From Kondoa subrosea (lineage: Eukaryota), in assembly GCA_039545335.1 (NCBI GenBank), contig BCIN01000004.1:982925-1046924 (forward strand): 64,000 bases of DNA, in the 5' to 3' direction. Positions 1,965 to 59,162 of the stretch are shown in pieces. Within the stretch, counting starts at the first letter, position 1. Every line of letters starts with the position of its first letter. The notes below the pieces were generated by a model. That model searched no databases and was not told the DNA's origin. It was given only the letters and a program-made list of their open reading frames with translations. Made by a program: the position numbers and the translations under genes.

Positions 1965-2103
1965 TCCTCTAGGAGATATCAATGAAGGGGTATCACAGCA
2001 CAGAAATTGGTAGGTCGCAAGTGGAAGAAAGAAAAACTTGTGAATGCCGCGTGTTAGGGCAAGCGCGAACGAATTATGCATTTGCTGCTAAAGACTGCTT
2101 AAG

Positions 2104-17600: not shown

Positions 17601-19531
17601 GGTTAGCAATGATCGAAGTGGGTCGCATGAAGGATGCAAAAGATGCCTTCGATGCCGTAGCTGCAGCTGTTGGTGAGTGCTTGTCATATCGCATCAATGT
17701 TTGAGATTGACATCTATGCGCAGATACAACAAGTGAAGAACTCAACAATCTGATGCCTCCGCACGCTTCTTCTGGCCTTGAGCACTATTACTATCACGTT
17801 GCGGAACTCTTTCACCAGCATTCAGCGGATTCAGAAACCCTTCATTTCTCATCATTAAGTATCAGCGAATCCACTTCGGATACAGACGAAGGCTTACGAC
17901 GCGAGGTGTCTCATCGTGCTTTTCAAAGCGCGGTCAATCTAGCTTTGTACGAAAGAGCGTACGCAGTTATGACGCTCATGCCAGCGTCGGAATCGTTAGC
18001 ATCCGTTCTGTCATTATGTGCTTATTGCTGATTCTTCATTGCAGGCAAAACGACTCTCTTCGCTCTCTCATTTCGCATACGGTAGAAGCTAGTCAAATAG
18101 ATCTGCTGCTTGGCTTCCCCTACGTTGGGTTGCGCACAGAATTCGAAAACCAGCTTGAATTCAGAAGTCGGAACGAAGACCCTAGATCCAATATCAGTTT
18201 CGCCAGAATCTTGTATTCGTACTATCTATCTCGGAGTGATTACCGCAAAGGTGTGTTTTCGTCACGGCTGCAAATGTGCTGGTTTTAACGAGCTGTTAGC
18301 GGCTGGCGCAATGTATCTACACGCACGCAGGCTGGCCGAAGTGGCTTCGCGTTTTGAAGATTCTTCCGATCTCATACGGCAGCAATGTCAAAGTTATCTG
18401 GCAGCAATCAATTCTCTCTCGCTGGTCGAAAATCAACATGCATGGATAAGCTCTTCTGCTGTTTCCTCAAAAGTAAGTCACAACAGCCCAGAACACAGCC
18501 AGTCCCTTTGGTTGATTGAGCAACAGCGGAAGCGCCGGAAAATTGCTTCCTATATTCCAGCAGAAGAATTTGCCGCTGAAAGTCCGGATTCCATCATCAT
18601 CGATTTAGCAGACATACGGCAAGAGTATCACCTTGCTCTCGCGAAGCTGGTCTTGGCTTCCGATTTTCCTCAGCTGCGGCAAAGTAGTACGTGATGCTTC
18701 GTGCGAATTGTTGGGGTCTGACGAAGAATTCAGCAATGGATCTCGATCGCGAATCTGCTGTTTCTCTGTACTCTCAAACAGGTCGAATCGATAAAGCGTT
18801 GGCCGCAGCGGAAGTTCTCGATGTTTCAATGGATTCGATTTTCGAAAATCTTACTTCAAAATGCATTCAATTGAGCAAACCAGGCCACACTACTTCGTAC
18901 GTCTTGTCTCTATCCACTTCTGATGCCACTTGAAACTTACGAACAGCTGGAATAGTGACGCTGCAGTCGGTATGCTGTTTGTTGAAACAGATGCAACCTC
19001 GTGGGAAGGATCTCCTGCAATGAACGCGTGGTATCTGCTTCGGACGTACTTGGAGCGCTACGACAAGCAGGAGAGATATCGAGAGCGAGTGCTGGATCGT
19101 TGTCTTCTGGCGAATTCCAAAGTGCCGAGCTGGCTGCTCGCCACATTCATCGTATGCTTATATTCTCTCTCTTGACAATCTGTGTTAATTATTTGTCACA
19201 GGACAAGCGTCCAAGTTTGCTAATACGAAAATGCCTTCGAGTTGGCTTAGTCGAAGACTCCTTGCGTCAAGCTATTGCTTTAGTTGAGAAGGTATGCAAA
19301 TATGTTTCTCGACCAGCCTATTGGCTGATATCTGTCGTATAGATGCCCAAAGCCACGGCAATAGCAAAAACAGCCAGCTGTCTGGATTGGTCCCTATTCG
19401 ACGAGCTGCTCGCACTAGAAGGCGATGATGGCGTCAAAGAATTGCAAAAGCTGCTACGAAAAGGACTGGAAGATCGGCTTGCACGGCTTCAAGCGACTTC
19501 GACTCGAATGATGGCACGAGTATCTCGATGA
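14686..19531 (+). CDS. NUP120: Nucleoporin Nup120/Nup160
   Basis: Large multi-exon protein with an N-terminal beta-propeller (VVLTESGNLYRLTF, SISRDKKLRLWSL), a helical C-terminal part (ILYSYYLSRSDYRKAAGAMYLHARRL, QCQSYLAAINSLSLV) and a KRRK motif, typical of the Nup160 family. Confidence 0.85.
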
Positions 19532-21757: not shown

Positions 21758-23930
21758 TTAGTATAACGGAAAGCCTACATCAAAATGAAGCTCAGCATCC
21801 ACTTCTTCATAATGCTCAAACAGTCCTTCCATCAATTTGATGAGATAGCCAATATCCTGACTGCCTGCAGTTTCTCGAATAGAATGCACTGGGTAGATCT
21901 TCAGTCTCGGTGCACAAGCGCACAACCGAAGATAGCTTACTACTCAATTGCGCACAACCGATATCACAAGTTCTCAACCCAATCTTGCTGATCAATGGTC
22001 CGATAGTACTGCCTGCGAAGAAGAGTATCAAAGAGTTGTTTTACTTGCTTAGATCCTTGCGCCTTACCGCATGGCATATCATTGCGAACCTGTGGTCTCT
22101 AGATTAGCAACTTCCTATATCACTCGAAAGATGAAACTCACCTCGTACTCTTGTAGTGGCACATTGACTTTCTTCGCGATCCGCTTGAGCAGGAAATGAG
22201 ATTCAGCTGATGTAGCATAGCGCTGCTTCGCATTGGCTATGTAGTAGAGTCAGCAGTTAAGACACAGAGATTCAATATGAAACACGTACTCTTCACTGCT
22301 GGACCTTTGTTCATCATTGGTCTAGCATACGTCAGGTACATAAGGCGAACAATACAGAGCAAGCTGAATAGAGCGAGTTGAAAGACACTCACCGATGATT
22401 GACTTCATGCTTGTCAGTGAACGAAGGATGTAGAGCATGACCCTACAGTAAGAAAATTAATATAACTTTAGTAATGCTTACGATATTAAGTGCTTACCAT
22501 ATCGCAGGAGAGCAAGTAGGAATTAGCAATCGCGCGCTACCCAGCAATAAGCTCCCAGCATCGTCATAACAGACAACAGATCACCTACATGAACGACCTC
22601 TTCTTCCGCTACGCTAGAATGGAAACCAGTCGTTACTCTTCCAATAACGCTTTCCAAGAAATTGCTTTCCGCTCCATGAGCAGAAACGCTTCCAATTTCT
22701 TCATGATCAAACAAACAAATCAACTTCCCAGTCTTGCAATTAGCTAGATTATCAATGTTTGACATTGCTTTGGCAGCGCAATAGGTTGAGAACAGGTTAT
22801 CCAGTCTACCGGAAAAGATGAATTCATTCTTGGCTCCTCCTAAGGTACTAGGTTGCACGTCGATGAAAGATAGATCAAAGCTCTGAATTTGATCGACTGA
22901 GTCAAGTTGAAGTTGATCTTTTAGAATAGATAGGAGCACAGGACTGTGATATTCTTTCTCTGGTGTTGTTTCACTGCTGCTGTCATTTGAAGTCGGTTCA
23001 TTCAAGGTAGAGGATAAGAGTGATAGTATAGGAACCATTTGAGTTTCTTGATTGTAGAATGTTTTCCTACTCAAAGGGTCAGTCCTTGATTTCGGCTGCC
23101 TGAAATCACTTATCGACTAACTCATTCTGTGTACGATCAAGATGGATAGCCACAGTAGGTATACGAGCCTAGAGATGATGAGCATCCATGCTGATAAGCA
23201 AGCCAGCAGGTAACATACTAGAGGCTTGGCGATATGCACCAAATGAGACGTGTAAGGCGTTGTGCTTCCTTCTTTGTTGGCAACTACTACACGACCTGCG
23301 ATTCCAAGATCTCGATCAAGCCAGCTATGCCACAGTCCACCTGATCACGATGTTGGTATTCGTAGAGGCAGCAAGATCGGGCTACGGACCTCCATACGTC
23401 TCTACGCCCACTCGAACATAGCCAGAGTCATTACGCTAAAGCACAGATGAGAGAGAATAGTTGATCGACACTGACAAATACCTTTGAGATAGGCCTGATC
23501 TTGAAACAGCATCTATATAACCAAGGTCAGCGCTAACTCTGAGCGCTCAGAATAGAGACATACGAATCAGTGTGAGTGCCGACGATACTGAAACCGTTTC
23601 CAGGTTGGTATGCGTCTCCCAAAGCGAATGCAATCAAGCTGTATCATGATGAATTGAGAATGTATCCAGGCATAATGCAGCAGGAGAAGCCAACCTTGAC
23701 TGATTTCTTGTCACATAATACTTCCCTTTAGCTTCCAATTGACCTTTCCACGTCTCTCTTTCATGTAAACGCTTGAAACCAGATGCTTCGAGCATGTCTA
23801 CAGTCTGAGCAACAGCATGATAATTCGTAGGCGCTTTGTTGATGAATTCTATAAAGCCCTGCGCTGGTTGCAAGTTCTCAGACAACCCAGCATCGACCCA
23901 AGTAGGTGAGATTTCCTTTGACGATGACAT
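21758..23930 (-). CDS. APE4: Aspartyl aminopeptidase (peptidase M18), multi-exon; both ends approximate
   Basis: FIEFINKAPTNYHAV, VGTHTDS, VETYGG, TWFDRDLG, GRLDNL, LFDHEEIGS, GSTIGP, HSIRE. Confidence 0.9.
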
Positions 23931-24503
23931 TTGAGCAGTGTGAGGAATCAGGTTCAGCGATAGCCGAGGCAATCTGGATCTTAGGAGCGCGTGAATCTTT
24001 GAATGACACTGCCAAACAGACTACTAGAGCTGGCTGGCTGAAGCAAGACGACTCGGAAATATTTATAAGTCACTGGCAGGGTTGACCCAAGGCAAGCACC
24101 TGGCCACTATGCTATCTTCCGCTATTGTAGCGTGTTTCTGATCTATCTCTTCTTGTGCCCAAATCTGTGCATGTATTCATTGGCTTCTTGTGCCAACCAA
24201 AAGCTTTACCATCGATTCTGTCTTTTTCTTGTCTGCGCGCGCCTGAAGACTGCACAGGCTGGAATCTCTATGTGGCATGACCTCTGCGCGAATGAACAGC
24301 CTTAGTGGGTCCAGTGCATCATGTTCGTGTTCTGGTAGTGCTCTGAAAATGATACTTCGGAACTGCTTTTCTTCTGCCTTCACGCTCTTCTCAAACGTCA
24401 AGTAAGGAACAGGAATCACCGCTTTATATTTCCAGTGGCTTTCGGGATCTAATTAACCGTACAGTTATTTCGTCTTTCTTGCTCTCCAACCACCGCTTGA
24501 ACC

Positions 24504-25596: not shown

Positions 25597-28500
25597 CTAC
25601 GCTTCCTTTTGCTCCTTCTTCGCTAGTTCCCTAAAGATGCCCGAAGATCGACTTAATAGTTCCTTTGGAGTTCCTTGTTCAGCAATCTTGCCTTGATCTA
25701 GAACGAGAATATAGTCCAAAGGCATTACTGTTGCGATTCGATGAGCGACAACTAGTATGGTACAATTACTGAAAGCATTGGCCAAGGTCTCCTGCATTGC
25801 TGCGTCGGTTGCCATGTCGAGAGAAGACGAAGCCTGTAGGGTAACAAATCAGGGTTACAATTTCGATTGAATGAAGTTCACCTACTTCGTCCAAACAGAG
25901 GATTTTGCGGTTCCGAACTGCAATGGACAGTCAGAGGCGTATTTCAGGCTTTTTAGGTCGCGTACGCGAAGCTCGGCACAATGCCAATAATTGCCTCTGA
26001 CCATGAGACAACGTTCCGCTGGCTGCACTGACCATGTGATCGAGCTTGCCATCCAGTTTGTCAATGAAGCTTCGACAATTGGTCTTGTCGATAGCTTCCC
26101 ATATTTCTGCGTCAGTGTGGAGATTCTCTGGATCTAAATTTGCCCTCGCTGTCAATTCGAGCAGTAAAGGATCTTGAGAGTCATGTCAGAAAATGTGCGA
26201 TCAGCTCGAGGATACAGGCATACCCTGAGGAATGATTGTCATCTGCTTCCGAACTTCGCTTCGTAAAGTTTGCGAGATATCAAAGCCATCAACTTCGGTA
26301 ATACATTAGTTTCATCCCGGCTCTGGCATACCGCAAGGCCTACTCGTGATTTGGCCGCGTTCTCTATCCTGTAAACGGAAGAGTGCGCTCAGAAGAGTAC
26401 TTTTGCCAGAGCCGGTCTATCTTCGCCTTGAGTATGAATATAAGCAATAGTGCGTGAACTTACCCTGCCGACGATGCCCACACGACTGCCTGAAGGCACA
26501 GAGAAGCTTATGCCATTGAGAGCAGGTTCGAGAGTAGGTTTATAGCGTAAGACGACATCCTTGAATTGTATAATCCCCTTCTCGATTCGTGGCATGTTTG
26601 CATTTGGGACGATAAGAGCTTCTTCGACTGGAAGATCAATCACGCGTTTGATTCTAGCACAGTCTTAGTATAGAGAACTGCATATAGACTGCTGTGTTTA
26701 CCTCTCAAGTGCGACTGAGCCGAATTGTACGACAGTCAATTTGTCGAAGAAGTTGACGAGCCAAGTAGGGAGTGTCAACGCAGTCAGAAGGCCGATGGCA
26801 AGTAGACCGCTGGCTTCACGCTGGGACACCGCAGTGGCGACCAGCACGAAGCAGAATGCTGCTATACAGTAGCTGAAGAATAGTAGAAGCGCCTGTCTAT
26901 CCCAATTCAACTGTCCTGAAGATAAGCATCAATCTGCACTAGCGCAAGAAGTATGCCCGCTCACCAGAAAGTAAGCTCGATTGACCAAGTCTATATGGTC
27001 GGACATCTGCTCGATCACAAGATTTTGCTTCTTGAAGATTCGCAGGGTTTTTAAACCATCGACTGATGTGATATCCTGATGAGCCATCATTTTGAGCATT
27101 TTCATTCAGAAACCATGCTCTATCGTAGACTAACGTTGATACTCTGATAGATTGGCGTTTTCGCAGCTGTGTCCGAAGACCTGGATAAGCCAAGTAGTGT
27201 GTGCAATACGTATCGGCGTACCTGGTTCGATTTTGCGTAGCTGTCGGGTTGTTTTGGCAAGGCTCCTTCTTGCCAATTCGCCCAAGATTCCAGCCTGACG
27301 CGTCTCAATACATACATGTAGGGGACAGGAGATCACTCACAACTAGGAAGACAATGACGGTGTACCACGAAGCTATAGCCGAAACCATTGCAACTGATAT
27401 CATATTGAAAGCCTGAACACTGAGGCCCTGAACTGCATCGGGAAACTCTCGCTCTATACAAGTGGACTCTCAGCGTTGGCTCACAGATACAAAGGAATGA
27501 TCGACCTGAGATATATGTGTCACTTGAGAAACGATGCAGGACGAATCCATGAGAATTGCGTTCAACGAAATCCAAATCTGTTGATAGCAAGGCATTGATC
27601 TGCTTGCTATGTAGACTTCGAGTCACAGATATCGGCAAGGCGATGTCCATACATCTCCACCATCTGTTGCTGGTTTAAGCTCTCTTTATACCACAAAGGA
27701 TCGAATAACTCACGACAGCAAAGTCACAGCCATGATGACTGTGAGACCAATCAAGCCACCAATCCAGTACCAAGCGTTCCTATCTGCTTCTGAAGATTGC
27801 GACCAATACTTCGGGTGATTTAGCCTCGCATATGTAGATTACGAAGAATAGCTACCTTAGAGTATAGACTGGTACCCACGGCGTGTATCGGCCAGCTAAT
27901 GAGACCTGAGATCGAAGCCCAAGCATACAACCTGAAACCGGCAGCAGCAAAGTAGTATCTTAATGCGACGAGAGTTGACATGTGCTTAGCCTGCTCGGCT
28001 TCATCATTTACAAGATGCTTTTCGCTCTTGTTATTCTGATCGACATCATATCTCGCTGCAGGTAGAGTGACTGATCTTTGCACCGGAGAGACCAGCTCCG
28101 AAGAAACATTCGGATCTTGCATAATGAGAACAAAGTCTGAATCTGAACGAGCAAGACTTGCAGCTGAACCTTGCCTCAGTCCTTTTGTCGATAGGAACAG
28201 GATATGGCGAGCCATTTGGAATCGAGAAGGATCATTGGAGGTCATAATGACTGTTTTGTTCTGCAGAAGACCTGATTGACCAAAGAGTGCCTTCACCACA
28301 GCACGTTCTGTTCTTCGATCCAGAGCGCTGAGGACATCGTCAAGAAGATAGACGTCCGAGCGACTGTATAATGCTCTACAAAGCGCTATTCTCTGCTTCT
28401 GACCTCCGCTAAGGCCTTGACAGAGCTGACTGTCTCCATCTTGCAATAAAGAAAAGTCCAAATCTAGAGCGCACGCTTCGACGCATGATCGATACCAGAG

Positions 28501-31031
28501 CTCATCGAAGGCTTTCATGAAGCAAATGTTGTCGCGAATCGAGAGGCTGCTTTGCAAAAAGGCATCTTGCGCGCAATAGGCAACTTGACTGCCGTGCATA
28601 TTGTTGACAAGTCTTCCGCTTGTGACATGCATTTCATCAGCTAAGGAAAGAAGTAATGTTGATTTTCCGACACCGACTCGACCAGTGATGATGGTTAGCT
28701 GATTGCGTGGTATAGAAGCAGTCATATCGTGTAGTAGAGGAAGGCCTTGGACGCCAATAATGGCTTTGTCAAGCTGGAAAGCATCTGAGGTCACACTAAT
28801 CTTCTCTTTGTCTTCTGAAACAGTTGAACAGGAAGAGGTGCGCGATGAAGTATAGTGTGCAGGATCAATGTTCTCTGACTCATTGAGGAATGCTTGAAGA
28901 CGCTGCAAGGACGACCAGGCAGAAATGCATTTCGGTATATTCCAAGAAATCTGTTTGGTTCATTTAAGCTTGAACATTTCAGACCTAGTCAAGGAATGTC
29001 TTCACCTCGAAGAAATTGCTTTGAAACACCTGTAAAGTAGCCAGGACAACAAAGACATTGCTATAGGTGAAGCTCTGTGTATCTGAGTAGCGGCAGTATA
29101 TGGCATATGTTGCCAAGGTAAGTGTTCGGATGGAAGCGAACATGACATTCGCAGTCCATCCAGTCCAGACAAAACGAGATTGGTACAATCTGGTTTCCTT
29201 CAGCTCATCTTCTCTTAGCTGCAAGTATTTGGCGCCAAGACACTTCTCTAGGGCTGAAAGCTTGATTGCTCACATGCAAGTCAACATGGACGACAGGAGC
29301 CGAACTCTTTTGTCGGTAGCTGCAGAAAGCCGACTTTGATCAACGAGGAAATGACCGGCCGTGAGGACAAGAAGGGACAAATTGAGGATCAAGAGGATCA
29401 GAGTCGAGAGGAAAGAAAGACCCAATTCATGTTGAATAATTATGAACCCAAGGGCGAAGATTAGCATAACTGCCGAAAGAATAGTTGAGCAAACATAAGA
29501 GCTCGACGAAGACTCCTCACTGACTGTGAACTACCAGATACGGAATTTTAGCGACCAGTAAAAATCTCTCGCAGTCAATGGTGCAGTGAGAGGTAATTGC
29601 TCCAGATCCTTGCTTCTGAACAACTGAAATATCTAGGCGGAGCTAGGAAGGTTTGATCAGCTCTTTTGCTGCATGCAAATCCTGCACAGACTCACGACCT
29701 TGCGATAGACCGCCTGTACCAAAGCAGCTCTGACTTTCGTTCCCAGTCTCGTCACGGATACCATAGTATTGCTATCAATAACTCCTAGCCTGTCAAAGTC
29801 TTAGGTCCGATGATGTACATATGGGACTTTGGCCTACAAGAGGAACACTATAGCATAAGATGCTGCCAAAGCCCAGCCATACGAGACAGGTTGAGGAGAT
29901 TCAGACTGATACGAGTGAAAGAACGCCAAAGTAGCTTTCAGAAGCAAAGGCGAAGCCAGCTTCAGTAAAGCGGTCAACGTGACTGTATTATACCTCACAT
30001 CAGAGGCAAACCCGTTGTCTCTCTGACGAACGAACCTTTGATAAGAGGGGTAAGGAAGTCAAGGGGAAACGCAGCCAGTAAAGCACAAGCTAGACCGTTC
30101 CGCCTTCTTGAATGTCGGTTCCATGATTGTTCAAAGACGGTATACACCTCTCTAGAACCTTCGGTCGATTCGCCCAAGTCACTTGCCAGTAAATTGCCAG
30201 CACGAGCTACCTTGATATGCGCCGCTAGCCATAAGAACATGTCTAGGGAAGGAATAGTAAGCTCTAGCTCAACAAATAGAATGATGCGTTACATCGTGGC
30301 AGGAAACCAGCAACTATTTCACCACCGATTGTCTTCCAAATATCATTAGCTGAAATCAGATTATGGATTAGATGTCCGCACCAACTTCAATCGCTCATCA
30401 GCTAAGACTTTTCGCTTTGATATTTGTTCTAGCCAAAAGAGGACCACTTTGGCGGCATAGGCGATAATGAACGAGGTAGTGAGGAACGAGGCATCCGAAT
30501 AGAATCCGACCAGCTTGAATGAACGTAGCAGAATAATTTCTACAATCAGTGTGATTATGAGGTACAGCGGCACCAAGGCAGAACCTCTGAAGGTCCGTAG
30601 GTGCTCCAAATAAGTTAGTATGGAGAGTTGTACCTATCAAAATGTAATCAGCTATTGCTGCCGAGGTTTGAACAGCCTTTACTTACTGATGCTACCAGCT
30701 GAATTATGACTAGTCCAGCAGCCACCGCGCTTCGGTAGGTGTATCTTTCGGAGGCAGTGAACCAAGCGATGACAGCCAAAAGATCGCAGACGACAGCCAG
30801 AATGACTGTACCCATTTTGGCTGGAAACAACAGGAACCATTTGCCTTTGCCGCGAGAGACTACCAAGTTGCTCCGATTGCGAAGTTGATACATTCGTGCC
30901 CATGCCAAAAGTATGAAACAAGCAGAAGGGAGAAGACAAAGCAGGGCAGAAAAAGCAAGTCGGAAATCGAACTCGCGACAAGTGCTCCCTACTTCGCTGG
31001 ATAGTGTCCAGTCATCAGCACAGAGTGACAT
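25597..31031 (-). CDS. ABC transporter, ABCC/MRP subfamily, multi-exon
   Basis: N-terminal TMD0 (CREFDFRLAFS). NBD1 has GRVGVGKS, LSGGQKQRIALCRA and YLLDD. NBD2 has GIVGR..GKS, LSHGQRQLLALCRA and VAHRIATV. Confidence 0.92.
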
Positions 31032-33816: not shown

Positions 33817-36800
33817 TCAAGCTACATCCATATCGGATACAGACTCATTGTCCTCTGCAAACAACCTTTCGCTGATAAAGTCTTCATCTTCTCCATCAGC
33901 GAAACCTCTTCCTCCAGAATAAGCCAAAGCCACAGGCAGGAAGACCAACCCATGCAGTGCGCCAGAGATGATCAGTGCGAGCCACATGCGGAAGTAGTAG
34001 GTCTGTCATGACCAGTCAGTGACGCGTCAATAACACAGAAAGCGAGAACTCACTCTCAGCAGCTTCGATCTCGTCAATGCCAATACAGAGATTCCAATGA
34101 GCTTAGTCATAGTAATACCAGAGAAGACCTTGTTCCTAAACTCAGCCCTCTGAATTTCTAAAAGAGTATAATAGGACTCACAGAAGATCCCACATCAGCT
34201 AAAGCGACCCAAGCTCTTTCATTCCTCTCTTTTGGTCCAGAAGGATGATCAAAAGGTAGACCACCTCCCAGAGCACCGGAGAAAGCTCTAGCGATATGAG
34301 AACAAAACTCCACCGATATCCCCACAGCAATGACCAAATTAACCAAAGAAACTGCGTTGAGACTTATAGACCATAGTCCCATGATACCCATGACCATCAT
34401 GACGGACATGAATGTCGTTCCTGCTACCACCGCGCCAGTTCGGAATGACCCAAGCATGAAAGAAGTCATGAAAAATACAGCTAGTAAAGCTAAGAAGAGG
34501 ACTTGACGCGTAGTTGCTGTTATCGTAGAATATTGATCAAAGAAAACGTAGAAGATAGAATAAGGATAAACGTGACCACCACTTTTGGTTGAAAGATCGT
34601 TGGCTATTCGATCAGCAGCTGCCATGGCGTCGATGAAGTCCTCTTGTGATTTTAGTGGGGTGTGATATGTTCTGAAATGGGATGCTGCTACATTATGGGC
34701 TGATTCGATAGAGATAGCAGACGAGTAAGGCGCTTGACCGCCCAAGGGACATGATTCGTCAGTCGGTGTCTTGAGCCATTGTTCCAGATAGCGCATGAAT
34801 TGATCGCCTTCAGGTAATCCTTCCATCGACACGTTCCAACTTTGACTTTCAGCTTCGTAACAAGGCATACATCGTGATTCCGATTCCGTCGAAGCGCAGA
34901 AAGTAGAGTGATCGTTGCGTCTGACTCGACAGCATGTATCAAGGACGGGATTAAGCCATTGGAAGTAATCGTCAAGCCAAACAGCAGGCGGTTCTGCTAA
35001 GAAAGAAGAGTCGGACTGTTTGCGTTGAGCTTCAAGAATATTAGCAACAGATTGATCTTCGCAAGTTGAGAAGCGACCACATAGAGCTTGCTGGCCAGCT
35101 CGAGCAGTAACATTGACCTTTTCCGTGACAAAATAGACTGGCGGTCCAACATCAAGGAAATTATCGATCGCGTCAAAGTAGGAGACCAGATAGGACCGAG
35201 ACGGAAGAGCTAGTCGCTGATCTATATAAAGATGAGACTTGGTCTTGGCAAACGCTAAGAACCATACCGAGTCCAAGATCGACTGTTCTCGCAGATACCC
35301 AGGACAACACAAACATAAGCGAGAAGATAGCAAGCACTGCTTGCTTAGTGTACTTCCGCAACAAGAAAGGCGCATAGTGGTTGGAGATGAAGCGGGTGAT
35401 ACTACTCGACGCAACAGCGTATAAGCTTGTCTTGGAGGCGGGCATCTTTATGCAAGGTAGACAATCAACGCGGTTGGCCTGACAGAAAATCAGCGGGTCC
35501 ACAAGTTCGTATTTTCTTGGCTCACCTCCGTCCTTCGCAAGTCAATAGTGATAGCCGCTACAAATACCGTAACTTGGAGTATCGCATTAATAGCGACTGC
35601 TCCGGCAGCATAGATTGCAAAATTGCGGACAGCTGGCATTCCAACGAGCGCACCAAGCGAGAAAGCCATTGTTTCGCAGACCGCGCTGAGAGTGATCGAA
35701 GGACCCATTCTTGATAGAGCTCGAGCTACTCTTTCCTCTGGTGCTGGCAGACCATCCAAATCTTCATCATATTCTGCTCTGCGTTGCTCATCGTCCATCA
35801 GAGCTTGTCCAGCTCCGCCATGCCGAGGCATTGTTGCGTAGGCTCGGGAATTCTGTCGTTCAAGTTCATGAGCGAGGATGAAGACATTATCCACACCGAT
35901 AGCGAGAACAAGGAAAGGTATGACTTCGGCGATGATGAGAGTGATCTTGATGCCTAGCATGGAGAAGAGTCCAACCGCGGTCGATACCGAAAGCAGGACG
36001 ACTGGATGATTCCGTTAGATGAATCTCAATTGATCACGATGATCTTACTAGCAATTCCCCAAAGACCTAGGAGGAACTTTGACTCCACTAAGACTCTTCG
36101 CATCAGCATTCCTGGCTTCTCCTCTTCATCATCGTCTTCTAGGTAAATAGCTCCGCCGCTCTTGCTTATCCGCCGCAGAACTAGACGGTACGTCCTCCTC
36201 AAGAAGCTTCTAACTACGCCAAATAATCCACCTAGAGTTCCGCCCAGGGCCAGCGAAACATACACAAACATGACTAAGTAAGAAAGAACGACGATCGGTA
36301 CATCAGTGTTTGTGGATTTGTTGAGTTCTTGTTCGAGAGAAACACCAGTAGAATAAGCGATTTGAAGACCCATTTCCGTTCGTGCTCTAGATCCCAGGGC
36401 TTCAAAATAGGCTTGCAAAGTGTTCTCCCATTCTTCAGCCTTAGCTATTACTTGTTTGTCCAGGGAATTGTTGACAACGTAGGTAATAACCAAAGCTCGC
36501 GCTTCTGTTGCCGAGACTACGCTATCTGAGCCATCATCAGGATTGGCGAGCGAGGCAGAATGATTGCCACTGTAGCCAGGAATACCTCCAAAGAGCAGTC
36601 GAGGTGAAAGAGGTTGACCACTAGGTGACAAACAGAGACTTGGACTTGAAGCACATTCATTCAATGAATCTGCCCAAGTTGCTTTCCGAATATTACTGAA
36701 GTCATTGCCAAAGTAGCCCATAAAGCTTTGAGTGACACAATCATCTGCTGATGTAGCTCTTCCAGAAGGAGCGAAGCAGACATCTTTCAATGTATAACCA

Positions 36801-38487
36801 TTTTTAGGTGAAGCCAATTGTCGAATCTCCTCTTCTATTCCGGCCCACCACTTGATTCGTTCATATGAAAGGACAGGTGCATTCGGGTCAAGATTGTCGC
36901 TAAGGAAGATTTGTTCTGTTCGATAGAAAGGCCCAAAATCCGCTTCGAACGCTTCTTTGTTACGAGCCGAATCACTGCCTTTCGCTACCCAAAGCTTGAC
37001 CGGATCTCTTTCTACTTTGAATCTTGCCCAACCAGAATTGAGCAGACCACAAAGTAGTAGACCAAGAACCAGCGTTATATAGGGTTTCGAAGCGCAGAAG
37101 TAGCCTAAGCTGTAAAACCATTTGGAAAGATGTGTATTGACAAAGTATGCTCTAGGTTGGGAAGCTTCTAGAGGACCTCCTTCCAATAGCGATGCACCTC
37201 GACCAAGCCGATTTCTTGACAGCGAGTGTGCCGGTGAGCTGTCCATCATCGACGACCCGCTCGGTGGACCGTTATAGGATCGTGGCAGAGGAGCAGAATT
37301 AGAAGAATGAGAAGATTGACGATCATGGGAGTCTGTTTGATCTTCGTCAAGAGAGATACCGCTGAGGTTCGAATGCCTGTTGCGCAGTTTGGGCAGCAAA
37401 GTGGAGCGACGCAGCCAGATCTTTTGAATTCCCATTCCAAACATGAAGCAGAAAAGAGCTATGCTGTATAGTAGAATCAGAGCGAAGTCGAAGCAGCGTA
37501 CGCGGCCGACTCGGCATTCAGAAGCCTTGATTTCCTGAGGCGAAGGGGTATGTGGTAGTGCCAGGCAATTGTCTGGACAATCCGGACACGCGCATCTAAT
37601 GGTTGGGTCCGACGAATTGCACGCGTTGACCTTGCGATCGAAAGGCTCAATATGCGTATCGGAAATAGGATCAGATCCAGGTATTGGCAGATCTGTAGCA
37701 GGTTGAGGGAAGTCTATCTGGAAGGGAGAACCAAGTCCAGGTCTCTACATACACCTTAAGCTAATGGCAATCTGATTGAGGACTGGACAAACCTCTTGAC
37801 CCATATATCTCAAGAAAGCTAACCAATTCTTTGCTCCTCCGCCTAGGAATTCCATCGCATATCCATTGGTAGCACCAAATTTGACATTTTTACAGCTATC
37901 GAAGAAGCCAGAACCGAAATGCGTTGACACATGGAAAGCCAAACTCTTCACTGCAGGACCAAAAGTAGCAAACGAATCGGCATCTGTTGGCGAGAAAGCT
38001 GAAGTGAAGGAAGATAGATTCTGTGTAGCCGTGACGGAAACAAAAAGAGACTGATCAGGCGAACAAGTAAGGCCACAATAGAAATCGCGGAAGTTCAGAC
38101 GACAAGCAGGACACAAGGCTAAGAGTGGTTCTGCTTGAGCTAGAGATTGCTGGAAAGTGTCAAGCTGATCAGGAGTACAGCAGGCGTGTGTCCATTCGGA
38201 TTCTGGGCCACAGACTTCGCGCAATGATGCTTGAAACGCTGGATCCACCTGTTGATACGTTTGAATACATGACAGCTGCACCGATGTATACAGCTACACA
38301 CAGATCTTGCTTTCTGATTGTCTGCACAAGGAAGCGCCTGTCCAAAGATTCCGCCTTTACGACCGCATTCACCATACATTGAGCATCTTCCAGCTTCCCT
38401 GATTGTTCCCTGTCCCCATCTAGGGTTATCCGCTTGAGCTAATGCAAAGGTATCAAGCAGCACCAAAGCTGCGATGGGTATCCGCAT
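33817..38487 (-). CDS. NCR1: Niemann-Pick type C1 sterol transporter, multi-exon
   Basis: Signal peptide, Cys-rich NPC1 N-terminal domain ([24 protein letters not shown]), [11 protein letters not shown], sterol-sensing domain ([18 protein letters not shown]), [25 protein letters not shown]. Confidence 0.95.
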
Positions 38488-38745: not shown

Positions 38746-41700
38746 TTACATGTAGTAGCCACTGCCTTTGAGGTTTCCATGAACTGGTCTGAGTTCAGTG
38801 CGAGCATTTGTCTGGTTGAATCAGGTTTAGATAGACCGACCGGTATATACACTATGCACTCACCAAAGCAGTGTTGCGAGCTCTATCGCGCTGCTCGCTA
38901 GTGACGCTGCCCGTACTGTTTGATAATTGATTCAGCTCAACACAAAATGAGGGGCAGAAGGTTCTTACATGGTCGTAGCCGCATCGTCCTCAGAGAGGTA
39001 AGCACGAGCACGAGTAGCGACCAGGTCAGCCTAAGCTGTTATAAGCGCATGTCTGAACGTGTTAAAACACAACTCACAAAATATGCCGGACTGCACAGAG
39101 ACACGGAGCGAGTCGAGCGGGCTAATATACTCATTATTAGTTGCACCATCGAACGGATGAATGCAGAGACATACGGAAGAGGAAGCACAAGCTGAAGACC
39201 AATTGCTGAAGATCATCAGGCTTGAAGTTGTTCTCATCTAAGAGACTATTCGAAACAGTGAGCGCAAGCTTAATAAACGACGATATGACGTACGCAGTGT
39301 AGTGACAAGGTTTTGAAGTGCTGCAGCAGAAGTCAGACGGAACTGCAACAAGCAGTGTAAGACTTACCCAAGGAGACCAGCATGAGATAGCAAGTAGAAA
39401 TCGTTGTTGACAGGATGGGCTGGACAGTCTCAATTAGTCACATTGCTAACTAGGGTTATTGTAACTTACTAATATCATTATCCACGACGGTACCGGCAGG
39501 TGCATTGCCGCTTTGATCACCACCTTGACCTTCTGGGAACAAGCGGATATGATGACGCTTGGCGCAAATGATATATGTAACGGGAGGGTTGTAGCTGTAT
39601 GCGACCGTCAGCTAAGTCTACTGCTTTAGGGCAATAAAACATACGCAGAATCAATAGTTTGGCAAGCTCTTTTGAGAGCAGCGATTTCTCGAACAGCGAC
39701 TTCACCAAATTGACCTTCCTGTGCCCAAGAAGCTTGTCTCAGTAACCCAAAAGGTACGAAGCGGCTCCAAGACGCACGGAGACACCATCACGCTATCCGA
39801 AGACGATCAGCGCGGTATAGAACATCAGCAACGGTAACTCACGAAGAACAGGATACGAGCAGGCTTCTGCTTTGTGCTCTTGTAGTAATCTTTGATCAAT
39901 GTGACAGCCATTTCTGCAAGATCGACAATAATTTCTTCTCGAGAGTTTTGAGCTCTGACTTCGGTGTTGAAGCCAGTAGCGGTGCGATCATGGGAACCAA
40001 CGCATGAAGCGATGGAAGGAGCCGTGCTGCCAGGACTGCGACAAATGTCAGCAAGCACCAATTACATCAAAACATCTCACTGACCCAGGATGAGCAACAT
40101 CAGCTGACGAACGATCAATGATCAAATCAGACCGCAAGGATGCTATCATGTAAGAAAACTGACCTCCGAAGACGATGGTAGGAACAGAGTTGATATCCAA
40201 GCCTTTCATTTGAGGAGGTGCAAGAATTGCGTTGATTCCACGGAGCTTGACGTTGATCTTGAGCGCGACATTGCTGCAGTAAGCTGGTTTGGCTCCACGA
40301 GCTTTACCGATTCGCAAGCATTGAGTAGCGACACCACGATGGCAGTCACCAAATGCTATAAAGCGATGTCAGACGGTCTCGTCTGAGCGAACACACGTGC
40401 TTACCTTTGATAGCACCATACTTGCTTGGACCAGATTCAGGAAGCAGGCAAACGACGAGACCAGGAGGTTTGTTACCGAGAGCAGCATAGACTTGTTTGA
40501 ACCAAGGTTCTATTTCTTGAGAATTGCCAGCATAGATGATAGGAGGCCTAGAATGACAGAATGAGTATCATTCTAGATCGATCATACTGTAGAAACTTAC
40601 TTGATGTTGCTGAAGTTGATACCGTATTCTTGGCAAGATCGAACCAATTGACCAATCAAGTTTTCGCAATCCATTCTAGGCATACCAGAACCACGACGTC
40701 CATCACCTTTTTCAGAATCGAAGACAATGACACCCCTTTGAACAGATGTGAGCAGCAGCACATAGAAGGTCCGAGCCTAAGACTAACCAATCTGGCATCT
40801 TGGCAGCACCAAAGAGTTTCTTGCCTCGATAATCCTGGAAGTCGAAAATCTTTCAATGTTTAGAAGACACAAGCAAAGGAGTCAACCTACAATTGTTCCG
40901 TTACCAGGTCTCAAGTTCATGGACTTGTTGCTCTTGTCCTTCACAATCAATTGAGGAGGATCAAGAACACGACCGTTGACAAGCATGGGCTCAGTGTTAA
41001 CACCGAATCGCCAAGCAGAAGTGACATCGTTCGCATTGTAGCCGAGAAGTTTAACGCCCTCTCTTATAAGGGCTTGCTTTTCGCTTGGTTTCTTTGTGGT
41101 GAATCTGCATTCGATCGTTAGACAATGTTGCTGAACGACTTCATGAGACCTACTTGAGCGTTTCAGCAACTTGGTCAGGACTGAGCTTCTTTGTGAAGCG
41201 ATCACCCTGTACATTCTTTAGCACGATAGCAAAACACTGCTGAGAAGTATCTAAAACGCACAGATTGTACAGTCACCAATTCCAAAGGATACCAAGCCCT
41301 CTTAGTCAATCTTACGCAAGGCAAGTTAGGGTTCTGCAACCTCATGCCATTGGAAGCAAAGTATTGAGCAACAGAGACTTTTCGTCCATCATCGGTAGTC
41401 ATTTGTTTCTGAGCAGCAGTTTCACGGGACATTTCTTTGATCTTGAACTTGCTTCTGGGAGAAGAACCGCCAATCAAAGGAGCTTCGACTGGGATACCTC
41501 GAAGGAAACGACCGAGTTCAATCCGTTGACGATCAGGTAGACGAGCAAGTTGTCCGACATCTCGAACGTTTGAGAAGGCGGCAGCTACTTGAGGCAGATC
41601 GCCAGGTATGATGAAAGCCTGTGAAAAATCTATTCAGCCAAGGCTTTGAAGCCCAAATTGAGAAAACCTCACACCAGCGGTAGTATCGAAGTTCATGATG

Positions 41701-42806
41701 AGCTTGCCTGATGCAGGTCGAAGCGAGGAGAAGAAGCCACGCCAAAGCTCGATCGCACCACCGATGTACATTTTCTGATCAGCTGAGGTAGGACGAGGGA
41801 AGATCGAGGCGTTCTATCAATCAATGTCAGTGATCATGAGGCAGCAGACTATCAATTACTCACCTTATTGGCATACATCAATGAAGGCTGATGACGGATC
41901 ATGACATTGAGAGCGGTAATGCACATGAGGACGCTTGGAAATGGTTAACTTTCATCTTGGAACACTGTTCTCTTGTATAGCTTACTTTGCGCTGACAGGA
42001 GTTTTTCTGTTCAAGAAGAGACCCATTTCATGCAAGTTAAGAGTATTGGCTGAAAAAGGGAAGAAAGAAGCGAAGAGCCAAAGTTGAAGCTTTGCATCTA
42101 ATGATTTTGAAGATGCAAAACTAACCTATGGTGAAAGTGATCTTGAAAGCTCTGCCTCCACGGTCGTTGGAACCTTCATCAGGGACATTGACATCGTACT
42201 GCGAACATATCAGCTTTCTGAAGTCTGGCTTGTCCAAAGGCATTCTCACCTCCTTGCGTTCGGCACCAAAAGGATGACCGTTGGCGAAAGCAATCTTCTC
42301 ACCGTCGTAAACGACTTTAATACCTTGCAAAGAAGCACCGTGCTGAGCTTCAAAATGACGCCAAACTTGACGTTTGACAGTCTTTGGTACATCAGGAACC
42401 ATGATAACATCATCTAGCATCCAATATAAGCGGACAGTAGGGCACAGAGCTGAAAAAACATACATTGAGTGATCACAAAGTCGGGTAAGGATTTGACTTC
42501 GAAGCAGTTGACCTGGAGATTGTTGAGCTAAGACCATCTTTCAGCGAACATTGCACCTACTCGTAGCTTGATAGGCCGGCCTGCACAGAAAAGTTTAGCT
42601 GAGCTCAGTCTAAGCCAAATTTCAACAAACCTCGAGTTCCATAACCCTGCGCGAGCTGTTAGTCTATGAATGTAGAGAGAATGCAGTACATACGTTTCGA
42701 TGAGCCAGTCTATGCATCAATGAAAGTCAGTATTTGTGGGGCTGATGGCATGAAAGCAAACTCACTGGGCGTCTGCAACGTTGCCCTTGAATGAAGTGAC
42801 AGACAT
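38746..42806 (-). CDS. Argonaute (PAZ-MID-PIWI), multi-exon
   Basis: VYDGEK, PAZ-like SVAQYF...LQNPNLPCV...YPLEL, GRVLDPP, NVALKINVKLRGIN, FGADVAHP, RDGVS, GTVVD, SKPCHY, ARSTRSVSV..PAYF|ADLVATRAR, C-terminal GYYM*. Confidence 0.95.
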
Positions 42807-47732: not shown

Positions 47733-50700
47733 ATGAAAGTGACTTCTGAAGCTAATGTCCGCAATCTCACAGAAGAAAGCAGTGCTTCTTCTTTCATTTC
47801 GAGCGACGATACCCGTGATAAGAGCTCAGATACCCAGGCTGCAGAAGGAGACAAGCATAAGGATCCTTGTTGTGAGCATGAAGCAGTGAAATCGCATGCA
47901 GAGCGCTGACTTGCTCCAATAGTCTCCTACAATGCACTCATCAATGGTGATGAGGATAAAGAAGCTGTCAAGACTTTCTATCAGCGGTGTAAGCCTTTAC
48001 TCTCCGCCTCCGCGGGCTAAAACTGACCGACGCAAAGTACCGACGCCAACCTCAACGAAGGCCGCATTCAACATAGCTTTAGCAGCAACTCCAATCGATG
48101 CACACCAGTTCTGGACTTCAGTAGAACAGCAAATTACCGTGCCAAATTCCCTACATCAAGAACAGCTGGCTCGAACAGATGCAACAGTAGATCAAATGAA
48201 TGAAGTCAGGAAACGAAATGGTATAGAGTCTCTTCAGTCTCACGATATCTCTCGGTAAGTTCGTCCTTTGGCCTTCTTTTCCTCCTCTCCAATAAATTTC
48301 TCAGTTGTGGCCCTCCTGAGATGAGCTTGGGCTTGGTTGGAGTTTACGACAAATCTAAGAGCGGAAGCAATCACTCGCTGCTGTCGATTGATTCGCTGGC
48401 CTGGACAACAACAAAGTTGAGAGAAAAAGGAGCCTCCAATTCGAAAGTCAGCTTGTTTCTTGTTTACCTCCCGCTTAAACCACTGACACCATGCCCAGTT
48501 TTCGATGGTTGATGTGGAACTGGTGCGAACCGATATCGTAGCCGCTCCTAAGTTGTTCACCCAAAGCGGCTACGGGCTGCCACCTCAAGCTCAAGATGTC
48601 CGCTTATCACTCGATCATGCTGCAGATTGGCTGGAAAGACATGCCTTTCTGCCATCAGTCCATGTAGCAATTGGACACGCTGCCGATATCGTGATGTCAA
48701 ATCTGGAGAGGATCTATAGGCGAGAGAAGAGTCATCGACCAGAATTGAAATTACTGAAATCTGGTATCAAGCAAGTCTTTCCATCTTTACCTACAAGAGA
48801 AGTACCGGAAGATGAAGAGATGCATATCAGATTCGTGAGTAGAGCTTGCTGATTCTCAATTCCTTCAATACTCATCCAGCTATGCACTTAGTGGATGTTG
48901 CACGAAGGCAGCAAGGGTTACTCTGCATGCTTCCTTGGCTTTCATCTAAGTGCAGCCAAATATCCGCATTTCAGAACAGTTCTCTTTGCGAAGGAAATGT
49001 TTAGTGTGGTATGTTTTTCGTGTAAAATTCAATGCCGTCCAGCATTCTGATAGCTCAAGCAGGAATCAATCGTCAATATGATTATACACGAAGGCGATCC
49101 TGAATCTTATGTACCTAGTATGCGCAAATCGCTAAGTATGCGACGATAATTCTGATCGGAGTTTCTTTTGCCTTTTCTAGAGTACGCGTGGGACTATTCT
49201 CTATCAGCGCTCCCAGCTCAACCTGGTCATACTCAACACGTGGAGAAAGGTGGACTACATCGCAAACTCAATTGTCTCCTCGCTGGTATTCGTCGAGCTC
49301 AGCAAGTCGATCCCAATATTCCCGACCCCAGCTACGACATGATGCCATACGATATAGCTACCGACCTTGAGGCACTAGGTTACGATCCTTCTACTCGTCC
49401 TCAAGGCATGACCGCGTTTGGTCACGCGTCCTCTTTCTACATTCGTAAATTTGCTCCCCAATGCTCAGGTGAGGACGTTGCTCTATTTATATTCGTTGAC
49501 TCAGTGCATATACAGACGACCCAGAAGTCAAGCAAGCTTGGTTGGATAGCCTTCCTCAGCTTTCGGATGACCCAGAAGTCAAGCAAGCTTGGCTGGATAG
49601 CCTTCCTCAGCTTTCGAAAGATCCAGAAGTGAAGCAAGCTTGGTTGGATAAACTGTTGGCAAAACTTCCGCAACTTTCNNNNNAAACTGTTGGCAAAACT
49701 TCCGCAACTTTCGGATGACCCAGAAGTCAAACAAGCTTGGCTGGATAGCCTTCCTCAGCTTTCGAAAGATCCAGAAGTCAAGCAAGCTTGGTTGGCTCTG
49801 CTACCACAGTGCTCAAAAGATCCAGAAGTCAAGCAAGCTTGGTTGGCTCTGCTACCACAGTGCTCCGAAGATCCAGAAGTCAAGCAAGCTTGGTTGGACA
49901 GTCTGCCTCAGCTTTCAGAGGACCCAGAAGTCAAACAAGCTTGGATGGATAGCCTTCCTCAGCTTTCGAAAGATCCAGAAGTCAAACAAGACTGGCATAT
50001 AAAAAATTTGGATCGCTTCAATGTTGAAGCTGCTTTGCAGTCGTTTCTAGACAGATTACCACTAAATGCTGCAAACCTAGTCTCTGAACATTTACAGCTG
50101 GAAAATTTGTCGCAGCTCAGCGATGAAGCATCTTTTCGTCTTTCTTGGCTTTCCAAAGTGCCAAAAACCTTCACTGAAGCTCAAGCTCGGCAACATTGGC
50201 TCGACCTGCTTCCTGAAAAGGTCTTGACTCCACAAGTACAGCAAAAGTGGCTCGAATTTATCCCTCTATGCTCCAAATATCCTGTAGTCAAGAAGAATTG
50301 GCTGAATCATCTTCCTGCACTCTCTTCTCATCCAGCCGTGCAGCAATCCTTGCTTTCCTCTTTACCCGATTGCAAGACTGGAGCTGAAGTGAAGGAGACT
50401 TGGTTGAGAATGCTACCTGGATGTTGCGATGACGCTGAGATGAAGCGAGCATGGCACACTCACTTACCTCAAACTCTTTTGCACCCTTCCATGATCGAAA
50501 GCTGGCTCAACTTACTACCGCAATTAGCTGCCAACCCGCTTATCCAACAAGCTTTCAGCTCCTTGTCTGATCGATCAGCGGATGTGATGCAGCAGAACTG
50601 GATGAATCTTCTACCTCAGGGTACTGGTGATGATCGTGTGGAAGAAGTTTGGCTGGAACTCATGCCCATGCCCGAAAAACCAAGTTTGCAGCATGTTCTT

Positions 50701-56470: not shown

Positions 56471-59162
56471 ATGTCTGAAGCAAGGTGAATACACAAAGCA
56501 TGACGGAATACACTTCTGTCCTATGCTTGCAAAAGACCTCTGGCTGATCTGGTCCTGTGTCACAGCTGTGATATCGGTCTTATTGGCCTGGCCGTACGTC
56601 CAAAGAGCTCGGAATAGGAGATGTAGCAAGGCTTATATGAGAGAATCCGCAAAACAGGTCATGGGCTGCAATTTGGTGCTCAAGTAAGTTCTCTAGCTGG
56701 TCTGAGTCCCTTACATGCTCATTTTGCTTCTGTAGCATGAACGACAAGGTCCGGCATCATTCAGAGTCTCTAAAATGCTGAATACTTACTCGATTCTATA
56801 CTTAGGGCTTCAAAGTCGGTGTCTTCAACAGAACAGTGGTACGTCTGCTTCTGAAAGCTCTCTAATGCAATCTCACCTTGTGCTTTCAGTCCAAAGTCGA
56901 TGCTTTCCTTGAAGAGGGCGCAAAAGGTTTGAACAGGTCCAACTCGAATGCACATTCATCTCAAGTATTTTGCACGCAGGCACCAACGTCGTTGGCACTC
57001 ACTCTTTGGAAGAACTTATCAAAGTACTCAAGAAACCAAGAAAGATTATTCTTCTCGTCAAAGCAGGCAAAGCGGTAGACGATTTCATTGAAGCTATGAT
57101 TAAAGCTGGTTTGGAAAAGGGTGACATCATTATTGATGGTGGAAACTCTCACTACCCTGATTCTATGCGTCGCACAAAAGAATTGGAAACCAAAGGTTTC
57201 CTTTTCGTCGGTTCAGGCGTTTCCGGTGGTGAAGAGGGAGCTCGTCATGGACCTTCTATCAGTGAGTAACAACCAAAGCTAGGAGAGGATTGTACTCAGA
57301 TTGCTTGTGTGTTGTCTCACAGTGCCCGGTGGATCAGATGCTGCTTGGCCTGAAATCAAGGAAATCTTCCAAAAGACCGCTGCGCAGTCTGACGGAGAGG
57401 TGAGGATGCTGTTCTACTTGTCTGGCAATAATTGATCCTCGCCATAGCCATGCTGCGACTGGGTGTATGTGTCCATTGCCTTGAAGTAGAATATTCACTG
57501 ACCCTTCCTCCATAGCGGTCCCGAAGGAGCAGGACACGTAGGTCGATCTCCTACTTCAGCTCGTCTGTAGCTGAGTTGGTTGTTCGCGCTACAGTACGTC
57601 AAGATGGTTCATAATGGCATCGAATATGGTGATATGCAATTGATCTGCGAAGCCTACGATATTATGAAGCGCGGTCTTCAACTACCTGATAAAGAGATTG
57701 CTCAAGTCTTCACAAAGTGGAACAAGGGCGTTCTTGATTCTTTCCTCATTGAGATTGTTCGTCATCCTTTACCTATCGCAATATGTATATGCTTATCGGG
57801 TATTATGGGTGATGTTCAGACTTGCGATATCCTCAATTACGATGATGAAGATGGTACACCTATGGTCAACAAGATTTTAGATGTTGCTGGCCAAAAAGGA
57901 ACAGGAAAATGGACCGCCATCAACGCTCTCGATCTAGGTATGCAACGTATTTACGACATCTGTACATCAGCTCATGGTCCACTGTAGGCATGCCCGTTAC
58001 TCTGATCGGAGAAGCCGTCTTTGCTCGATGCTTGTCATCCATCAAGTCCGAGCGTATCGCTGCATCCAAGAAGCTCAATGGTCCAGATGCTGAACCTTTC
58101 AAGGGCGACAAGCAACAATTTATTGATGATCTCGAACAAGCTCTTTACGCCTCAAAGATCATCTCGTTGGTTTATTTTACTGTCAGGTTGCAGTGTGATG
58201 CTTAGACTGTAGCCATTGCGAACAGATACACCCAAGGTTTCATCCTCATGCGTGAAGCTGCTAAAGAATATGGCTGGAAGTTGAACAACGCTGGCATTGC
58301 CCTCATGTGGCGCGGAGGTTCGTCGACCGTCGACTATGCTCGAAGAGCTGGTGTCTTGACAATCTGATGTACAGGCTGCATCATTCGCTCTGTCTTCCTT
58401 AAGGATATCACCAAAGCTTTCAGGGACGAACCCGAATTGGAATCCCTCCTCTTCAACCAATTCTTCATGAATGCTATTCACAAAGCTCAACCTGGCTGGC
58501 GCCGAATTTGCGCTCAAGCGTCATTATGGGGAATTGTGAGTGCCCATGCTATGAGCTTCAGACAATTCTGATGCTATACATTGATGTCGCCTGACAGCCT
58601 ATTCCTGCTTTCTCGACCGCTTTGTCCTTCTATGACGGTTACCGTACTGAGAACCTACCTGCTTCTTTATTGCAAGCTCAGTGAGTGAGATGCTGCGTGC
58701 ACTGGCGTCATGCTGATGCACGTCTTTTCTCTCCTTTCACAGGAGAGATTACTTTGGTGCTCGTAAGCTTCTCATCATCTGACATATCGGAACTGAGACT
58801 GATTACTTTGTATGTCCCAGATGTCAGTCGAAGGCTATGCAGATCTTTGTATTTGACTAATCTTTGCATCATCTTCTAATTGACAGAGTAAGTACCGTAC
58901 ATGATAGACCTATACGTTTTGGGCTAACGATTTGTTTTGCAGCTTTCCGCATCAAGCCAGAGCACGCCAACGAGAAGTACAAGGAAGGCGAAGACATTCA
59001 CGTCAACTGGACTGGCCGAGGTCAGACCTCATTGCGTTCCGATGTTCGATGACTATTGCTAATAAAGTGATGCAGGTGGAAACATCAGCTCATCTACGTA
59101 TGTTCTACTTTATCAAAACCATTGGTCATACTCATGTTTCTACAACTAGTTACAACGCTTAA
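56471..59162 (+). CDS. GND1: 6-phosphogluconate dehydrogenase (decarboxylating), about 21 introns including microexons
   Basis: [80 protein letters not shown]. Confidence 0.97.

Follow-up and report, generated by a model that had tools for sequence, protein, structure and literature searches.

Single exons of one or two nucleotides are already documented in plants, in Fusarium and in Coprinopsis, and the case described here is an extreme example. In Arabidopsis, APC11 contains a constitutive 1-nt exon within a 422-nt interval, which was established with reporter constructs and cDNA (Guo & Liu 2015, PMC4674806). The authors of that study argue for intron definition, in which the two flanking introns are removed successively, and recursive splicing is named in their discussion (PMC4674806). 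A constitutive 1-nt exon is also described in plant VPS55 (PMC8831610), and a plant peptidase M1 gene carries adjacent microexons of 5 nt and 12 nt (PMC8831610, PMC11096116). Plant RNA data indicate that introns flanking microexons are removed consecutively, with the downstream intron going first more often (PMC8831610). In fungi, a 1-nt exon was found in the CYP621A P450 genes of Fusarium from SRA reads and 24 aligned genomic orthologs (PMC12940212). The paper terms this the first fungal case (PMC12940212), and others are listed in a long-read annotation of Coprinopsis cinerea, where the exons of 1, 2 and 3 nt number 13, 57 (in 50 genes) and 27, respectively (PMC12230235). Such counts imply that the splicing machinery of basidiomycetes handles exons of this size routinely (PMC12230235). 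Adjacent microexons of 3, 18 and 22 bp are described in human RPS24. The ratchet points of Drosophila are zero-length exons, at which very long introns are removed stepwise and no base is kept.

In this study, we analyzed a GND1-type 6-phosphogluconate dehydrogenase (6PGD) gene of Kondoa subrosea that lies within a window of 64,000 nt, the whole stretch of DNA under analysis, whose numbering is used throughout (Table 1). The sequence comparisons indicate that, very probably, three short spliceosomal introns interrupt the codons for a conserved His and the Thr after it, leaving a constitutive 2-nt exon (AT) and a constitutive 1-nt exon (A). The anatomy can be read directly. The exonic sequence GAGAGATTACTTTGGTGCTC runs up to 58762, where exon 17 closes with the bases GGTGCTC, and the coding sequence resumes at the first base of exon 20 with CTTTCCGC; 180 bases lie between them. 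With the three introns removed, exons 17 to 20 join to give RDYFGAHTFRIK. An earlier sequence-only reading of positions 58743-58950 had proposed two consecutive microexons at this site, and every coordinate and sequence that it gave is correct, base for base. Joining the pieces confirmed that AT and A restore His-Thr between GCTC and CTTTC, and that a single canonical parse does so. Inclusion of these three bases in the mRNA of K. subrosea itself is predicted from the relatives' sequences and from the logic of the sequence.

Table 1. Features of the 6PGD locus, in window coordinates
Feature	Position	Strand	Description
GND1-type 6-phosphogluconate dehydrogenase gene	56471..59162	+	22 exons, 21 introns, 1479-nt CDS, 492 aa
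Exon 17, 20 nt	58743..58762	+	(Q)RDYFGA and first base (C) of the His codon; aligns to L001 1485-1504
Intron 17, 58 nt, phase 1	58763..58820	+	GTAAGC...CTGAT...CCCAG; donor 5.3 bits, acceptor 1.5 bits
Imperfect copy, interrupted by a 2-nt insertion, of exon 17 nt 1-14	58795..58810	+	Inside intron 17; local alignment score 22
Exon 18, 2 nt (AT)	58821..58822	+	Bases 2 and 3 of the His codon
Intron 18, 64 nt, phase 0	58823..58886	+	GTCAGT...CTAAT...GACAG; donor 6.5 bits, acceptor 2.0 bits
Exon 19, 1 nt (A)	58887..58887	+	Base 1 of the Thr codon
Intron 19, 55 nt, phase 1	58888..58942	+	GTAAGT...GCTAAC...TGCAG; donor 7.9 bits, acceptor 6.7 bits
Exon 20, 78 nt	58943..59020	+	Opens with CTTTCC, of which CT completes the Thr codon; aligns to L001 1508-1587

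The gene model was obtained by aligning the coding sequence of L001 to the window with introns limited to GT/GC-AG, and one boundary was corrected by hand. L001 is a metagenome contig of 1735 nt with an uninterrupted coding sequence that is 89.2% identical to that of the window. The model translates without a stop into 492 residues, 490 of which are identical in the metagenome protein P0002. The longest contig of P0002 measures 1679 nt, which leaves no space for introns and marks it as transcript-like. L001 and P0002 are sequences of related organisms, and they stand for the transcripts of relatives rather than for K. subrosea mRNA. P0002 contains the domains PF03446 and PF00393, and an N-terminal NAD(P)-binding domain, a C-terminal 6PGD domain and a size in the range of about 470-500 aa assign the gene to the decarboxylating 6PGDs. 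The translation of exon 7 matches solved 6PGD structures from sheep (1pgn_A, E 2.8e-35) and yeast (Gnd1, 2p4q_A, E 1.6e-32). Among named organisms, the closest 6PGD proteins come from Rhodotorula (79%), Austropuccinia (78%) and smut-type yeasts. A GRP94-like gene adjoins the 6PGD gene, and its protein is 57-59% identical to those of Microbotryomycetes. By these comparisons the source is an intron-rich basidiomycete whose nearest named relatives are Pucciniomycotina yeasts. It is not close to the rusts, since the GRP94-like proteins of Puccinia are about 50% identical, and it belongs to a poorly sampled lineage, probably in or near Pucciniomycotina.

The 6PGD gene is unusually fragmented, with 14.2 introns per kb of CDS and 13 of its 22 exons no longer than 37 nt. 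Other genes of the window have unbroken reading frames of up to 768 codons, and the adjoining GRP94-like gene has far fewer introns. When that neighbor was searched by tblastn with the guide protein P0233, its pieces abutted with no residues missing and no further microexons. In a decaying or redundant gene copy, or a misassembled locus, the parse would be without biological meaning. A run of five N does occur in the window, but it is distant from the gene (49679-49683). Against decay, all 22 exons are open and encode a full-length protein that departs from that of an expressed relative at two positions. Between the window and L001, 342 codons are identical, 144 differ synonymously and 7 nonsynonymously, a ratio that reveals strong purifying selection on the gene. 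An assembly error, for its part, would not generate three introns that are well formed and match the local size class. We therefore regard decay or misassembly as extremely unlikely.

Arg446 and His452 (sheep and yeast numbering) are residues of the C-terminal tail that bind 6-phosphogluconate and are contributed by the partner subunit (PMC1919378). Both lie within the motif QRDYFGAHT, and in the window the substrate-binding Arg and His are both encoded only when the 2-nt and 1-nt exons are included. The junction in L001 reads GGTGCTCATACTTTCCGCATC, which is the sequence predicted from removal of the three introns, and so the cDNA junction that had been proposed for this gene is found contiguously in the transcript contig of a close relative. 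A blastn alignment of L001 to the window covers 58743-58765 with one mismatch, G to A at 58763, and then jumps to 58943, the pattern expected for a microexon structure of this kind and the one that short-read mappers would be expected to give. A metagenome scan with P0002 as the query returned 80 loci. The motif is contiguous under a strict pattern in 54 of them; of the remaining 26, 20 reach the site and all read G-A-H, and 6 stop short of it. All 74 loci that extend to the site thus carry G-A-H, and 211 of the 232 proteins that we fetched have the His-bearing motif. The His is never replaced among these 211 proteins or 74 loci.

These observations bear on the simplest competing explanation, in which the 180 nt are removed as one intron, the main mRNA encodes Gly-Ala-Pro-Phe and the internal splice-like sites are coincidental. 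Such an intron would have a good donor (5.3 bits) and a good acceptor (6.7 bits), and its product stays in frame. The sequence-only reading had foreseen that skipping both microexons would preserve the frame and put Pro in place of His-Thr, and the translation, RDYFGAPFRIK, bears this out. The product, however, loses the substrate-binding His (PMC1919378) in a gene under strong purifying selection, and a G-A-P-F reading occurs in none of the 232 fetched proteins and in none of the 74 loci that reach the site. The transcripts of close relatives encode His-Thr. Together with its length and the chance controls described below, this makes removal of the interval as one intron very improbable as the main route.

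A different arrangement was found in L026, which is 70% identical and is the only informative intron-bearing fungal genomic relative that we found. In L026 the Gly codon is interrupted by one intron of 75 nt, located 5 nt upstream of the position of intron 17, and His-Thr is encoded contiguously without a microexon, which indicates that the microexons are not common to that lineage. The motif is also encoded contiguously in L031 and L065. Among the loci found, which include no close genomic relative, no genomic ortholog shares the positions of introns 17-19. As a side observation, the site around Gly-Ala-His-Thr appears to be intron-prone, with the L026 intron lying 5 nt upstream.

We scored the splice sites with position weight matrices built from the other 18 introns of the gene, for which the comparison range was obtained by leave-one-out. 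The donors of introns 17, 18 and 19 (5.3, 6.5 and 7.9 bits) compare with a range of 2.0-7.6 bits in the 18 others, and the strongest donor of the whole gene, GTAAGT at 7.9 bits, directly follows the 1-nt exon. The acceptors (1.5, 2.0 and 6.7 bits) compare with 0.5-8.3 bits; introns 17 and 18 have weak ones, close to the bottom of the range for the gene. All three introns contain a YTRAY branch motif, compared with 9 of the 18 others; the branch-like motifs lie 18 nt from the 3' end in intron 17, 26-30 and 7 nt in intron 18, and 15 nt in intron 19. Intron 17 also contains a strong decoy donor, GTATGT (6.8 bits), at 58810. The lengths of the three introns (58, 64 and 55 nt) fall within the 48-81 nt of the 18 others (median, 57 nt), whereas a hypothetical single intron of 180 nt would be 2.2 times as long as the longest of them, which argues against removal of the interval in one piece. 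Intron 18 is peculiar in its surroundings, as the exon on either side of it is shorter than one codon.

The parse that restores the motif is unique. Within the interval we listed every way of removing up to four canonical introns, each 20 nt or longer, and exactly one of these gives RDYFGAHTF. With introns of at least 40 nt, 34 GT-AG parses are possible, and only the proposed one yields His-Thr; the rest of those that stay in frame either bring in unrelated residues or drop the His, and they need donors of at most 4.0 bits (mostly at most 1.2 bits) or an acceptor of -3.2 bits. We also carried out a nested and sequential search with up to four introns in which new sites were permitted to form at junctions. 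This search returned 18 ordered pathways, and the retained positions are always 58821, 58822 and 58887. Six of the pathways are the orders in which the three introns can be removed, and the other 12 add a 31-nt excision within intron 17 that is a meaningless addition. For both ultra-short exons, then, canonical AG and GT flank the exon, the neighboring introns are of normal size with a branch motif in each, and the bases are needed for the frame and for conserved residues that no alternative canonical route supplies.

Non-canonical sites, a different microexon or a nested twin-intron could conceivably supply the three bases instead. The number of possible GT-AG parses leaves some room for this, and the enumeration covered canonical sites. 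Nevertheless, the other parses use poor sites and fail to give His-Thr, and the nested search always keeps the same three positions and calls for no new sites, so that a source of this kind is exceedingly unlikely. One candidate, a 3-nt exon TAA at 58889-58891 that the aligner chose at a higher intron penalty, was rejected because it replaces His with Leu (GALTF) and uses a donor of 0.6 bits. A stwintron was rejected because the signals of all three introns are complete in the unspliced RNA and no newly formed site is needed. A ratchet point or recursive splice site was rejected because two bases and one base are retained.

The three-intron parse also exceeds chance. As a control, we took 180-mers with the same outer sites and scored those in which at least two introns of 40-100 nt leave the bases for His-Thr. 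In Markov-1 intron-like sequences, any GT-AG parse of this type was found in 1949 of 200,000, a parse with sites no worse than those of the weakest reference intron in 217, one with sites matching the observed quality in 25, and one with sites of the observed quality and a branch-like motif in each intron in 2. Dinucleotide shuffles of the interval gave any GT-AG parse in 1735 of 200,000, and in 254 of 200,000 the sites at least equaled those of the weakest reference intron. For removal of the interval as one intron this means that an internal parse as good as the observed one would have to arise by chance, at a frequency of about 1e-4 to 1e-5. Taken by itself, AG-N(1-3)-GT shows no enrichment across the window, with 43 occurrences against a shuffle mean of 53.5, and the signal thus resides in the context of the gene and not in the motif. 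Overall, the reading with two microexons and three introns, as the sequence-only reading had put it, is well supported by the unique parse, the match of 490 of 492 residues to P0002, the junction in L001, the intron sizes, the chance controls and the invariant His.

How could three introns be removed from around three coding bases? Recognition is probably by intron definition, with each intron serving as its own unit of 55-64 nt, the size class of the gene's other introns. Exon sequence would contribute little to recognition, and exon length should matter little, because the exon side of the donors in the 6PGD gene lacks a consensus. It would be implausible for two spliceosomes to occupy signals 1-2 nt apart at once, which suggests that neighboring introns leave successively and that splicing takes two rounds or more. 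Stepwise removal of this kind agrees with the view of the authors of the Arabidopsis case (PMC4674806) and with plant RNA data (PMC8831610). The sequence-only reading held that the arrangement implies strict, ordered splicing. The sequence carries no such implication: the signals of each intron stay intact before splicing and after removal of any neighboring intron, so that all six removal orders keep every signal and a strict order does not follow. Any order would be chemically possible; the two outer introns might leave first and the middle one later, or removal might run from 5' to 3' during transcription.

The arrangement is also exposed to errors. Pairing of splice sites across 120-180 nt would skip one or both exons. 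Skipping of one microexon shifts the frame, and skipping of both gives the protein with Pro for His-Thr, an enzyme that would presumably be inactive. A preference for short introns, with sites about 50-65 nt apart, would disfavor such pairing and so guard against skipping. Some skipping of the microexons may nevertheless occur, because the outer donor and acceptor both score well and their direct joining preserves the reading frame.

A common origin of the three introns was considered and rejected, since the similarity of the intron cores is no better than that of shuffled sequences (fractions with at least the observed score, 0.074, 0.906 and 0.394). Within the window, a search for a second copy of the interval returned only chance matches of 10-15 nt. 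Intron 17 contains an imperfect copy of the beginning of exon 17 (Table 1). In this post hoc observation, 0.74% of 5000 shuffles reach or exceed the alignment score of the copy, and among the 21 comparisons of an exon with its downstream sequence this one ranks first. The copy hints weakly that a local duplication might have created intron 17, cutting AT off the end of an older exon. We tentatively extend this to a fuller scenario, which we offer as a possibility that we would not favor over its alternatives: both sub-codon exons are real and constitutive, with intron 18 between them; splicing in multiple rounds is forced, with fidelity provided by intron length alone; and the arrangement is young, with one intron derived from a local duplication that left the copy of exon 17 in intron 17.

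If the mRNA is as predicted, this gene would show about the tightest packing of spliceosomal introns that is possible, with three introns in three coding bases, and the packing would sit at the substrate-binding His of a central metabolic enzyme. The locus would then be a natural test of splice-site pairing in a short-intron fungus, asking whether an intron can be removed when no flanking exon exceeds two bases and in which order its neighbors leave. It would also be an annotation trap, where standard gene callers and RNA-seq aligners would report an enzyme with His-Thr changed to Pro, or a broken model. The signature, an intron of about three times the local size within a conserved motif, can be screened for. 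The significance of the case is limited by the earlier single exons of 1-2 nt in plants, Fusarium and Coprinopsis.

The known systems each share part of this arrangement. As at the ratchet points of Drosophila, a 3' splice site stands almost against a 5' splice site and removal would be stepwise; in contrast to them, two bases and one base are kept here, and each segment is a normal short intron. As with the 1-nt exon here, the single base of APC11 lies between a canonical AG and GT and is needed for the frame (PMC4674806). APC11 is a plant gene with one microexon (PMC4674806), whereas the present gene would have two in a row, predicted from its sequence and from the transcripts of relatives. 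The plant microexons described as neighbors also lie within one conserved coding stretch, and the plant 1-nt exons carry strong GTRAGT donors, which compares with GTAAGT after the 1-nt exon here (PMC8831610, PMC11096116). In contrast to the plant pair of 5 nt and 12 nt, neither microexon of the 6PGD gene reaches the length of a codon, which leaves the middle intron without a normal exon on either side.

Among fungi, Coprinopsis cinerea provides another basidiomycete with ultra-short exons (PMC12230235). The statement in the sequence-only reading that 1-nt exons are very rare is too strong for basidiomycetes, given the numbers of 1-nt (13) and 2-nt (57) exons counted in that species (PMC12230235). 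The Coprinopsis annotation is a genome-wide count whose text does not state adjacency, and a tandem pair may exist there unreported (PMC12230235). A word-matched search of the full-text literature, which yielded no gene-by-gene list for Coprinopsis, returned no published case of two adjacent exons below codon length, although one may have gone unreported. A further fungal parallel is CYP621A of Fusarium, where an over-long intron (more than twice the median) within a conserved motif, with one base missing from the coding sequence, likewise contains AG-N-GT (PMC12940212). That case concerns an ascomycete, a gene of secondary metabolism and a single 1-nt exon (PMC12940212), whereas in K. subrosea the same signature points to two consecutive sub-codon exons in a gene of central metabolism.

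GND1, the 6-phosphogluconate dehydrogenase (6PGD) gene at 56471-59162, carries 21 introns in a 1479-nt coding sequence, or 14.2 per kb. Of the 22 exons, 13 measure no more than 37 nt, with sizes of 13, 14, 17, 20 and 22 nt among them. The gene is much more fragmented than the neighbouring genes of the window, where open frames run uninterrupted for up to 768 codons. Five of these genes were identified as predictions from Pfam matches on open frames (see the table). A further gene encodes an ER-type, GRP94/endoplasmin-like HSP90, whose closest named relatives are from Microbotryomycetes (57-59% identity) and which is 90% identical to the transcript-like JGI protein P0233 that served as its guide. 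These matches aid the taxonomic placement of the source organism. The only ambiguous bases of the window, a run of five Ns at 49679-49683, lie far from the GND1 microexons.

Within intron 17, positions 58795-58810 repeat the initial 14 nt of exon 17 (58743-58756) with a 2-nt insertion, at an offset of about 52-54 nt downstream of the original. The repeat, observed post hoc, had a shuffle fraction of 0.0074, and none of the other exons among the 21 compared scored as high. A local duplication that gave rise to both intron 17 and the 2-nt exon that follows it may have left this trace. The same intron contains a strong donor-like GTATGT (58810-58815; 6.8 bits), with the 3' splice site of intron 17 just 11 nt further on. 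This site is a decoy; its pairing with the intron 17 acceptor is impossible, and joining it to later acceptors would lose the conserved protein.

The transcript contig of a relative, L001, has one additional Asp codon at about 870-885, reading DDEDDG where the window and the transcript-like 6PGD protein P0002 have DDEDG. The extra codon falls around exons 11 and 12.

Predicted and homology-based genes of the window, and introns of the 6PGD gene on metagenome contig L026
Feature	Sequence	Position	Strand	Remark
GRP94-like HSP90	window	about 2107-4909	-	
Predicted Nup120/160 nucleoporin	window	14683-18691	+	Pfam match on open frame
Predicted M18 aminopeptidase	window	22526-24020	-	Pfam match on open frame
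Predicted ABC transporter ATPase	window	27823-28959	-	Pfam match on open frame
Predicted NPC1-type sterol transporter	window	34161-38293	-	Pfam match on open frame
Predicted Argonaute (PAZ/Piwi)	window	40051-42540	-	Pfam match on open frame
Intron	L026	1779-1853		5 nt upstream of window intron 17 position
Intron	L026	about 1930-1998		11 nt upstream of window intron 20 position

L026, a fungal genomic metagenome contig with 70% identity, has only two visible introns, and both lie near intron positions of the window gene, neither coinciding with one. The region encoding the C-terminal tail of 6PGD seems to be intron-prone in more than one lineage.
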